From a virus (taxonomy: Duplodnaviria > Heunggongvirae > Uroviricota > Caudoviricetes), in the IMG/VR virus record IMGVR_UViG_2529293151_000014: 45,248 bases of DNA, one strand, 5' to 3'. Positions within the stretch are counted from its first letter, which is position 1. Each line of letters opens with the position of its first letter. This document shows positions 18,001 to 21,000 of the stretch, piece after piece. The position numbers were made by a program.

Positions 18001-21000
18001 TTGCCGTAGTGCCGCGACGCCGGGCGCAAGATGCAGAGATTGCCACGGTACAGGCCGTGCGGTTGATATAGCAAAAACAGAGCAGTGGGGGAGAGTTGTT
18101 GAGAAAGAATGCGGAAGATGCAAAGGTGTCGGCTATTCAAGGATGCCAGCAAGCGCAGCATATCGCGCTGTGACGATGCTAATCCCAAACCTTACCCAAC
18201 CCACCTGGTCACGCACTGTTAAGCCGCTGTATGACGCTCTGGTGGTGCAATGCCACAAGGAAGAGTCAATCGCAGACAACATTTTGAACGCGGTCACACG
18301 TTAGCAGCATGATTGCCACGGATGGCAACATATTAACGGCATAATATTGACTTTTTGAATAAAGTTGGGTAAATTTGACTCAACGATGGATAAATGCACT
18401 CGTTAAATAAAGCCCTGAGTTAATAGCTCGGGGCTTTTTGCGTTTTAATCACGACCTTTCTGAAAGCACATCAAACCAAATACCAGACAGACAAAAATAA
18501 TCACCTTATCCGCTGTGGCTACGGTGCGGTGTGCTTTGCATAAAAGAAAACCAGCGCAATGGCTGGCTTCGTGAAAGTGGGTGGCAAGAAGTTGTTGTCG
18601 ATTAAAAATAAATACAAGGAGTAGCTTATGCTAAGCGAAACAGCGAAAGATATCGCAGGATATGAAGGTAAATACTCCGTAACTACTGATGGCCGCGTTT
18701 ATTCTCATTCGAGAGTTGATGCTCGTGGAAGGTTACAGAAGGGCAGATGGCTTAAGCCTGTTAATCATAGTGATGGTTACTTGTATGTAAATCTCCGCGA
18801 CAAAGGAGCACTTAAAAAACATTACATTCACAGGTTAGTGGCGGCTGCATTCATTGATAATCCAAACTCGCTTCCGCAGGTAAACCACATAAATGGAATC
18901 AAGTCTGACAACAGAGTAGATAATCTTGAGTGGGTTACTGGCTGCCAGAATATGGTCCATGCAAGCAAGTCAGGATTGCTAAACCCAATCAGTGGTGAGC
19001 GTCACTATTGTGCAAAACTCACTACTGAGCAAGTGAAAGAAATACGTGCGTGCAAATCAATGTCACAGCGTGAAATGGCGAGAATGTACGGCGTATCAAA
19101 AGCAACAATTGCAGGAATTCTTAACTATAAGACATGGGTTATTTATTAACTAATTAATTAAGAGCTCCCATTACAGGATGCATTTATGAGTGCATCCATT
19201 AATGGTCGTTAAATGCGATTGATATGGATACTGCGCAAACAGTATCCCTAATGGTCTCCTCGCGAAAACTGTGACGAGCAAACAGCGTTACCGCAAAATG
19301 TAGCCTGGATTTGTTCTATCAGTAATCGACCTTATTCCTAATTAAATAGAGCAAATCCCCTTATTGGGGGTAAGACATGAAGATGCCAGAAAAACATGAC
19401 CTGTTAGCCGCCATTCTCGCGGCAAAGGAACAAGGCATCGGGGCAATCCTTGCGTTTGCAATGGCGTACCTTCGCGGCAGATATAATGGCGGTGCGTTTA
19501 CAAAAACAGTAATCGACGCAACGATGTGCGCCATTATCGCCTGGTTCATTCGTGACCTTCTAGACTTCGCCGGACTAAGTAGCAATCTCGCTTATATAAC
19601 GAGCGTGTTCATCGGCTACATCGGTACTGACTCGATTGGTTCGCTTATCAAACGCTTCGCTGCTAAAAAAGCCGGAGTAGAAGATGGTGGAAATCAATAA
19701 TCAACGTAAGGCGTTCCTCGATATGCTGGCGTGGTCAGAGGGAACTGATAACGGACGTCAGAAAACCAGAAATCATGGTTATGACGTCATTGTTGGCGGA
19801 GAGCTATTCACTGATTACTCCGATCACCCTCGCAAACTTGTCACGCTAAACCCCAAACTCAAATCAACAGCAGCCGGTCGCTATCAGCTTCTTTCCCGTT
19901 GGTGGGATGCCTATCGTAAGCAGCTTGGTCTGAAAGACTTCTCTCCCAAAAGCCAGGACGCTGTTGCGCTGCAGCAGATTAAGGAACGTGGCGCTTTGCC
20001 GATGATTGATCGCGGTGATATTCGTCAGGCTATTGATCGTTGCAGCAATATCTGGGCTTCTTTGCCGGGTGCTGGTTACGGTCAGTTCGAGCATAAGGTT
20101 GACAGCCTGATTGCAAAATTCAAAGAAGCTGGCGGAACGGTCAGAGAGATTGAGGTATGAGCAGAGTCACCGCGATTATCTCCGCTCTGGTTATCTGCAT
20201 CATCGTCAGCCTGTCATGGGCTGTTAATCATTACCGTGATAACGCCATCGCCTACAAAGATCAGCGTGATAAGGCCGCATCTATCATCGCTGACATGCAG
20301 AAGCGTCAACGTGATGTAGCAGAACTCGACGCCAGATACACAAAGGAGCTTGCTGATGCTAACGCGACTATCGAAAGTCTCCGTGCTGATGTTTCTGCTG
20401 GGCGTAAGCGCCTGCAAGTCGCCGCCACCTGTGCAAAGTCAACGACCGGAGCCAGCGGCATGGGCGATGGAGAAAGCCCAGGACTTACAGCAGATGCTGA
20501 ACTCAATTATTACCGTCTCCGAAGTGGAATCGACAGGATAACCGCGCAGGTTAACTACCTGCAGGAGTACATCAGGACTCAGTGCCTGAAATAATTTTTT
20601 TGCAAATCACAAAGTCCATTTAATGAGCCTCGCGGTGCGGGGCTTTTTTATATCTGAATTTCACAGCGCATCTCACGCGCATATTAACGAGAGCCTTTCA
20701 GTAAGCGAGCCTGAGAAATGCCGTTATAGGTGGCGACCTCTCTCGGGCGGCTTTTCTGTGAGACAGGCTCACTTTCTAAAAGGTAAAGACGCTATGAACC
20801 AATTAGAAGAAAAGCTTCAAAGAATGATTTCCTTATACAAGGAAGATAACTGCCAAAAAGTTCCTGAAAACATCGCAGAGTTAATGGAATTGGCAAGTGA
20901 ATTTTCTGGCATGCTTAAGTCGTCAGGTGTTCGGTCAGCGTTCTTTGTTGAAATGCTGATGCACGGCGGACTTATGGCAACAATGAGACGTGTAATGGAA

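Follow-up and report, generated by a model that had tools for sequence, protein, structure and literature searches.

What is a gene for an HNH nuclease doing in front of the holin gene of a lambda-like prophage, and how did it come to be there? The question is raised by the virus record IMGVR_UViG_2529293151_000014 (Caudoviricetes), a stretch of 45,248 nucleotides (nt) that was analysed as a whole and is called the window here; all coordinates refer to this stretch unless another genome is named. Between the gene for the Q antiterminator and the gene for the holin S, the window carries an open reading frame (ORF) of 173 amino acids (aa), which a first reading made without database searches (the sequence-only reading) had taken for a free-standing homing endonuclease of the HNH type with its own Shine-Dalgarno (SD) sequence. 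Our analysis makes it probable that this gene belongs to a free-standing homing-endonuclease cassette (I-HmuI/HNH_3 type) that lacks a promoter and sits in the untranslated leader of a lambdoid late operon, with the homing part of this description drawn from comparative patterns.

The comparison with close relatives defines the cassette as an insert. Its junctions were set by pairwise alignments in which long gaps were cheap, together with BLAST. Phage HK544 is 97.3% identical to the window over 17670-18594 and 97.6% identical from 19300 on, and between these two tracts the window holds 705 base pairs (bp; 18595..19299) where HK544 and lambda hold 66 bp. The length difference of 639 bp between the window and the empty alleles corresponds to the size of the net insertion. 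Most of the lambdoid phages that matched the region from Q to S covered 65% of this query in two pieces, with a span of 1381 bp as against 2020 bp. The claim of an insertion relative to close lambdoid relatives is borne out by these sharp junctions. As to its extent, the interval of 18448-19376 that had been proposed holds as the whole spacer from the tR'-type terminator to S, but the block that is absent from the relatives is the shorter 18595..19299.

At the point of insertion, the empty alleles carry a recognizable element. Their 66 bp open with the loop and the right arm of a strong hairpin, which in lambda reads GGCAGGAGGTCG-CGCTAA-CAACCTCCTGCC and is followed by GTTTTG (lambda 45031-45066; positions 1232-1267 of L005). 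The window retains the left arm of this hairpin, GGCAAGAAGTTG, which ends at 18594, and the segment 19234..19299 opens with the loop CGCAAA; the cassette-bearing allele L009 has CGCTAA at this place, the same as the empty sites. When 19234-19299 was compared with the replaced 66 nt, the two aligned free of gaps at 47% identity, a level that was reached by 5 of 20000 shuffles; this is the best register along the block, yet with 31 matches as against 29 for the runner-up. The best reading of these alignments would be a net insertion of 639 bp (18595..19233) that entered at the 5' edge of the loop, between lambda positions 45042 and 45043, with 19234..19299 as a strongly diverged copy of the resident 66 nt, after which identity resumes.

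The interrupted leader hairpin, which appears in the folds of lambda and HK544, has 12 bp, the loop CGCTAA and a following GTTTTG, and the outer pairing TTCGTGA/TCACGAA encloses it. Its equivalents are found in HK544 (L002, ~1203-1238) and also in SEN22 (L031) and SPN9CC (L032). Its conservation extends to leaders that precede class I holins as well as to those that precede class II holins, and the cassette insertion point lies within it. The GTTTTG after the lambda stem, read by eye, falls short of the 5 T in 8 bases that the scan requires. Luk and Szybalski are said to have described tandem terminators in the late operon of lambda in 1983. An inspection by eye of the flank at the left arm for single-nucleotide polymorphisms common to the cassette-bearing alleles and absent from the empty ones revealed no consistent difference.

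A second pair of filled and empty sites was found in a different genetic background. The Salmonella prophage L027 has a Q protein of 254 aa, genes for tRNA-Asn and tRNA-Thr, and a class II holin, and its HNH protein is 97% identical to that of the window. At the DNA level, the window and L027 are 97% identical within 18567..19372 and not beyond it; this tract is the cassette plus 28 bp on its left and 73 bp on its right. SEN22 and SPN9CC are cassette-less relatives of L027 with flanks that are 95-99% identical, the same junctions, and a length difference of 640 bp. There are two independent filled/empty pairs with one insertion point and different backbones, the relatives without the insert being HK544 and lambda for the window and SEN22 and SPN9CC for L027. 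In both pairs the presence or absence of the cassette is a polymorphism at one precise site among near-identical genomes, and the different Q and holin of L027 document a transfer of the cassette that was independent of its neighbours.

The tRNA genes, tRNA-Asn(GTT) and tRNA-Thr(TGT), are located between Q and the cassette in L027 (2713..2868) and in L010 (2666..2820), and they are also present in the cassette-less SPN9CC.

The nature of the protein was examined at the level of both sequence and predicted structure. In the Pfam search the two families that the sequence-only reading had named scored above their cutoffs, NUMOD4 at residues 7-57 (E 9.1e-12; 45.5 bits, cutoff 23.4) and HNH_3 at residues 65-109 (E 1.3e-8; 34.8 bits, cutoff 24.8), and the catalytic motifs are present. 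A C-terminal match to the helix-turn-helix (HTH) family HTH_3 (residues 137-169) remained slightly below its cutoff (21.5 bits, cutoff 23), and no Pfam family other than HNH_3 appeared for the HNH part. PHROG 59, 'HNH endonuclease', was matched with an E value of 6.4e-58, while the NCBIfam search of the 173-aa protein gave zero matches. Across all sequences of the PDB, I-HmuI (1U3E) was the sole clear match (E 7e-11). It was also the sole significant match when a predicted AlphaFold2 model, built on 67 homologues and with a mean predicted local distance difference test (pLDDT) value of 91.6, was compared with the PDB using Foldseek (E 3.8e-8, 178 columns, template-modelling score 0.56). The model has beta strands at 6-66, strands at 84-87 and 100-103 followed by a helix at 105-114, and three helices of high pLDDT at 133-165.

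Within the predicted active site, H87, N99 and N108 align to H75, N87 and N96 of I-HmuI, and N86, H87, N99, N108 and H111 are invariant across the alignment of 67 sequences. The acidic residue that precedes the catalytic His is absent: Asn86 takes the position of Asp74, a metal ligand in I-HmuI. Because Asn86 is invariant in the 67-member subfamily, we regard it as a subfamily-wide feature of the lineage and not as decay, and it is probably tolerated. Among six cassette alleles, the ratio of nonsynonymous to synonymous substitution rates (Ka/Ks) was 0.16-0.32, and values this low indicate that the protein is being maintained by purifying selection. As judged from profiles and the predicted fold, the gene is intact and encodes a protein of I-HmuI architecture, with a NUMOD4 beta-sheet, an HNH beta-beta-alpha-metal site and an HTH part, for which nuclease activity is predicted. 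The claim that an HNH endonuclease of the homing type lies between terminator and holin was thus confirmed by Pfam, PHROG, the I-HmuI fold and the intact catalytic residues.

The layout of the locus, from Q to the holin, is as follows.

17681..18304, + strand: Q antiterminator gene (Pfam Antiterm, E 1.3e-57), the upstream neighbour of the HNH cassette.
18347..18375, + strand: PR'-like late promoter TTGACT-17-TAAATT, overlapping the qut region (sigma-70 promoter scan and lambda homology).
18409..18447, + strand: strong intrinsic terminator in the role equivalent to tR', with a 13-pair stem and a T-run (terminator scan).
18448..18594, + strand: resident late leader 5' of the insertion, ending with GGGTGGCAAGAAGTTG, the left arm of the interrupted hairpin (97% identity to HK544).
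18595..19299, + strand: HNH cassette block of 705 bp that takes the place of 66 bp (aligned pairwise to HK544 and to lambda).
18616..18621, + strand: SD sequence AAGGAG, 6 nt ahead of the ATG (read from the sequence).
18628..19149, + strand: predicted NUMOD4-HNH_3-HTH endonuclease gene, 173 aa, I-HmuI-like (Pfam, PHROG, PDB and model).
19168..19205, + strand: hairpin 1 of the 3' tail, CCATTA..GGATGCA..TGCATCC..TAATGG (RNAalifold consensus and fold z).
19226..19247, + strand: hairpin 2 of the 3' tail, GGATACTG CGCAAA CAGTATCC, the counterpart of the interrupted leader hairpin.
19300..19376, + strand: resident S leader (100% lambda identity).
19377..19700, + strand: holin S of the lambda family (Pfam Phage_holin_3_1, E 2.4e-30), the downstream neighbour.

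We then considered how a gene in this position would be expressed. The window is 94% identical to lambda at the end of Q, PR' and qut (18290-18404 versus lambda 44495-44609), the HK544 annotation names the site that is aligned to the promoter at 18347..18375 as PR'/qut, and by homology to lambda the late transcript would start near 18382-18383. At the other end, the S leader and the start of S (19300-19400) are 100% identical to lambda 45109-45209, and likewise in HK544. The proposed match to lambda held in these two places and failed for the terminator, which is of the HK544/epsilon34 type: its hairpin, AAAGCCCTGAG..CTCGGGGCTTTTT, differs from lambda tR' (AATCCCGAAAC..GTTTCGGGATTTTTT) both in sequence and in distance, lambda tR' being located ~190 nt downstream of the transcript start. 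A short-leader terminator of the window type is also present in HK544, epsilon34, ST-35 and N7.

Between the terminator that ends at 18447 and S, the promoter and terminator scan found no promoter-like or terminator-like site on the + strand. With neither signal detected in 18595-19299, the cassette does not have the promoter and terminator of its own that would mark an autonomous moron, and its 3' hairpins are not followed by T-runs. The HNH gene is intergenic, within the untranslated leader between the terminator and S and not within an intron or an intein, and its SD sequence is kept as (A)AGGAG in all seven of the seven cassette alleles; the description of the gene as free-standing with its own SD sequence could therefore be retained. 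Since the cassette is promoter-less and lies downstream of PR' and the terminator, expression of the HNH gene should depend on Q, as far as its position tells. Position is likewise what speaks for the very high level of expression that the sequence-only reading had expected. The GC content is ~0.39-0.42 in the cassette block versus 0.46-0.54 in the flanking coding windows.

The resident leader contains another hairpin, CCAGCGCAATGGCTGG, at 18547..18570, which is kept in all leader variants examined. An A-run on the + strand before it results in a score as a minus-strand intrinsic terminator, and in this orientation it could stop antisense transcription that comes from the lysis side.

The distribution of the cassette is patchy. 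Of 5426 complete E. coli genomes, six have the cassette and 1064 have an uninterrupted leader site. At least 80% of the Q-S query was covered in two of the 196 phage records that matched it, and a third phage, 29485, has a diverged allele. A 100% identical protein is encoded by Escherichia phage N7, where it is annotated as 'HNH endonuclease domain protein', and the identical protein WP_000947860.1 ('NUMOD4 domain-containing protein') is present in the two E. coli chromosomes whose annotation was read (L017 and L018), in both cases within prophages beside the tRNA-Arg/yfdC locus; four further E. coli genomes have the same DNA and the same product name. In L018 (E. coli strain 114, NZ_CP087570.1), the cassette resides in a heavily decayed prophage remnant at tRNA-Arg/yfdC that has kept nin-Q-HNH-S-R and has lost the replication genes and most late genes.

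Diverged alleles, with 88, 77, 70, 69 and 63% aa identity, came from a metagenome contig, from assemblies of sequencing runs, and from Salmonella phages and prophages. All of them have a Q gene on one side and a holin gene on the other, with Q proteins of at least three families and holins of at least three kinds. The 63% allele is the one of Salmonella phage 29485, in which it is annotated as 'HNH homing endonuclease'; it was found in 4431 blocks of the assembly collection, and the five places that were read are Salmonella assemblies. Homologues with an identity of at least 62% are recorded from Salmonella, Citrobacter and Lelliottia. Further intergenic positions within lambdoid late operons are taken by more distant homologues: at 54-58% identity they are situated between the Rz and terminase genes, and at 46-49%, in the Lederbergvirus phages UPF_BP1 and HZ41, they are surrounded by head and tail genes. 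In total, 3263 phage records have a homologue of the HNH protein. The gene is already annotated in N7, in phage 29485 and in RefSeq, and as an I-HmuI-like gene it is of a very common phage type and in this respect ordinary.

Several individual sequences deserve mention. P0004 is a chimera that combines window-type residues 1-104 with a C-terminal part of the ST-35 type, a sign of recombination within the ORF. P0010 (103 aa, short at the N terminus) and P0020 (113 aa, short at the C terminus) look like degenerate copies, as seen from the proteins. The metagenomic phage contig L009 has a second gene of the HNH_3/AP2 type (2241..2732) in tandem directly upstream of the cassette, and in another such contig, L010, the Q-like ORF (1407..2534; 375 aa) has an HNH_3 match plus DUF1133. 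The interval between Q and the holin gene seems to collect several nuclease genes.

The part of the cassette that follows the stop codon is structured as well. This tail of 150 nt (19150..19299) contains the two hairpins at 19168-19205 and 19226-19247, and the single-sequence fold z over 19160-19300 was -4.5. RNAalifold predicted 36 pairs, and 4 of them show compensatory A-U/G-C changes among six alleles. With hairpin 2 the cassette seems to bring a substitute for the hairpin that it interrupts, and possible roles of the tail are mRNA stabilisation, a restored leader hairpin, or an effect on S expression. We also considered the tail as a variant of the leader that is independent of the ORF; this was ruled out, as it is found only with the ORF (three phage records and six of the 5426 E. 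coli genomes).

The cassette can be compared with three known systems. I-HmuI is a nicking enzyme of Bacillus phage SPO1 whose gene lies inside a group I intron of a DNA polymerase gene. It resembles the window protein in size (174 versus 173 aa), in the order of NUMOD4 beta-sheet module, HNH site and C-terminal HTH, and in the aligned catalytic His/Asn/Asn, and it differs in overall sequence (~27% identity), in having Asp74 where Asn86 is found here, and in being intron-encoded, whereas the cassette gene is free-standing in a non-coding leader. Within the lambdoid phages themselves, the interval between Q and S is known for cargo such as the stx genes, which are coupled to Q antitermination. 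The cassette shares with such cargo, and with the tRNA genes of L027 and L010, the slot and the expected coupling to Q; unlike it, the cassette would be a selfish nuclease and not a host-directed factor, and it has a single-nucleotide insertion point in a conserved hairpin. The mob and seg genes of phage T4 are similar to the cassette in being intergenic, often promoter-less, carried along on existing transcripts, and patchy among related phages. These genes encode free-standing endonucleases of the HNH and GIY-YIG kinds, and their spread by 'intronless homing' takes flanking sequence along by co-conversion (PMC2988022). In contrast to those genes of virulent T-even phages, the cassette is found in temperate lambdoid phages behind a Q-controlled terminator, and its cut site and its homing are putative.

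In the literature we found nothing specific on an HNH gene in the lambdoid interval between Q and the holin gene, and no description of the insertion site, of filled and empty alleles, or of an activity; the database annotations are automatic or brief. The HNH fusion that is mentioned in the epsilon34 paper belongs to the early left operon and is unrelated.

How might such a cassette work? In a lysogen, PR' transcripts would end at the terminator at 18409-18447, and the nuclease would be silent. Upon induction or infection, Q-modified RNA polymerase would read through, and HNH would then head the late mRNA as its first gene, to be translated from its own SD sequence. The enzyme would then nick or cut cassette-less lambdoid genomes in the same cell, which could be those of a co-infecting phage or of a co-induced prophage, at or near the uninterrupted leader element (around lambda 45015-45110) or possibly some distance off, this location being a guess. 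In the repair of the cut genome, recombination with the genome that bears the cassette would copy in the cassette together with some of its flank, and the carrier would be protected from its own enzyme by the split hairpin and the divergence of the adjacent 66 nt. For T4, free-standing endonuclease cassettes are described that are promoter-less, use upstream promoters, and show co-conversion of flanks (PMC2988022). The stronger claim, that the cassette is an active homing element which targets a conserved late-leader hairpin common to lambdoid phages whose Q and lysis modules are unrelated, is one that we put forward tentatively, as a possibility that we would sooner bet against than for.

Several observations weigh against the view of a homing-endonuclease cassette that was inserted into the late leader. 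The window shares a block of 4.6 kb (15993-20595, 98% identity) with N7 and E. coli prophages, so that its copy may have come in a large mosaic module and not in a cassette-sized event, and alleles that have diverged to 63-70% aa identity nevertheless occupy the same slot, which marks the element as an old resident of the leader and not a recent invader. In addition, the residue that matches Asp74, the metal ligand of I-HmuI, is Asn86 here. Free-standing endonucleases often cut hundreds of bp away from their own gene (PMC2988022), and in view of these distant sites the proposed leader target is only a guess. Finally, the conserved leader flanks together with ordinary lambdoid recombination at linkers could explain the L027 pattern without a nuclease. 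The last point leads to an alternative in which the gene encodes, or once encoded, an HNH endonuclease but is now passive cargo that spreads only by general homologous recombination at conserved linkers, with no contribution of the nuclease. A flanking leader that stays conserved among phages whose Q and holin genes differ, a mosaic block that extends beyond the cassette in the window and N7, and the age and divergence of the alleles are all in keeping with this alternative. We nevertheless consider it unlikely, because the invariant catalytic residues and the Ka/Ks values indicate that nuclease function is maintained, and because the same single-nucleotide junctions in two backbones, with an adjoining diverged tract, are the usual signature of endonuclease-driven insertion.

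Purifying selection would also be expected if the gene were a domesticated weapon or accessory nuclease that cuts competing lambdoid phages and prophages during late development or degrades host DNA, with its own spread as a lesser role; this reading agrees with all that was observed and is compatible with homing. Its late-operon position would provide for expression while competitor genomes replicate, and 1064 of the 5426 E. coli genomes have the candidate target in uninterrupted form. A strong benefit of this kind predicts, however, that the cassette should be commoner than six in ~1070 E. coli prophages with this leader, and we give this explanation a rather small chance. That the gene is ancestral to the interval between Q and S and was deleted in most lambdoid phages would fit with the finding that alleles of 63-100% aa identity share one slot in phages of E. 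coli and Salmonella. Yet what the empty sites contain, exactly at the position of the cassette, is a hairpin element that is undamaged and folds strongly, and not deletion scars; the GC content of the cassette is lower, a 97% identical copy is present within the otherwise unalignable backbone of L027, and the filled alleles are a small minority. The sequence-only reading had treated ancestry in this interval as the finding that would speak against it; the six filled versus 1064 uninterrupted E. coli genomes and the L027 pattern point the other way, and we disfavour the ancestral explanation as very improbable. The HNH protein gp74 of HK97 helps terminase to cut DNA for packaging, and the window protein, as an HNH protein encoded in a late operon with some homologues of 54-58% identity directly upstream of terminase genes, might be thought to be of this kind. 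Its Pfam matches are to NUMOD4 and HNH_3 and to no other HNH family, however, and its gene is not next to terminase, with S, R, Rz and the ORF at 20623..21282 preceding the remaining late genes. Moreover, N7 and the window have a 100% identical protein while their late regions past 20595 share only a 325-bp megablast match, and nearly all relatives with the same leader lack the gene. A packaging role is accordingly disfavoured and hardly credible.

Some features of the window lie outside the cassette. Beyond the block at 15993..20595, N7 and the E. coli prophages share with the window only scattered blocks of the early region. The part from 20600 to 45248 is without a close relative in a collection of 50,697 phage records, in which the best place covers 8%, and the virion-gene module of the window may be poorly represented among sequenced phages. 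The ORF just past Rz (20623..21282, + strand) matches T5orf172 (E 3.3e-10) and MUG113 (E 1.7e-14) as well as PHROG 4284, which is without an assigned function, and RefSeq has a 'GIY-YIG nuclease family protein' in the corresponding slot after Rz in L017 and HK106. This ORF may be a second nuclease-like cargo gene of the late operon.

We return to the reading of a homing-endonuclease cassette in the late leader. Few selfish elements are commoner in phage genomes than HNH genes of the I-HmuI-like type, and in itself one more cassette matters little. Its small points of interest are the single-nucleotide site in a conserved hairpin, the covarying tail that seems to rebuild this hairpin, and the 'safe' placement behind a terminator. 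The locus offers a clean filled/empty system in the well-studied lambdoid phages, with a precise point between lambda 45042 and 45043 and abundant natural targets in 1064 genomes. It also suggests how a temperate phage can carry a toxic nuclease safely: behind a Q-controlled terminator the gene should be silent in the lysogen, and the nuclease would be made only when recombination substrates exist. If active homing to the leader hairpin does take place, the conserved 3' hairpins with their covarying pairs would restore the structure that the leader lost through the insertion, and late cutting would convert co-infecting or co-induced genomes and drag Q or lysis alleles along by co-conversion. 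The cassette would then be an interference weapon and at the same time a local driver of lambdoid mosaicism at the junction of Q and the lysis genes.

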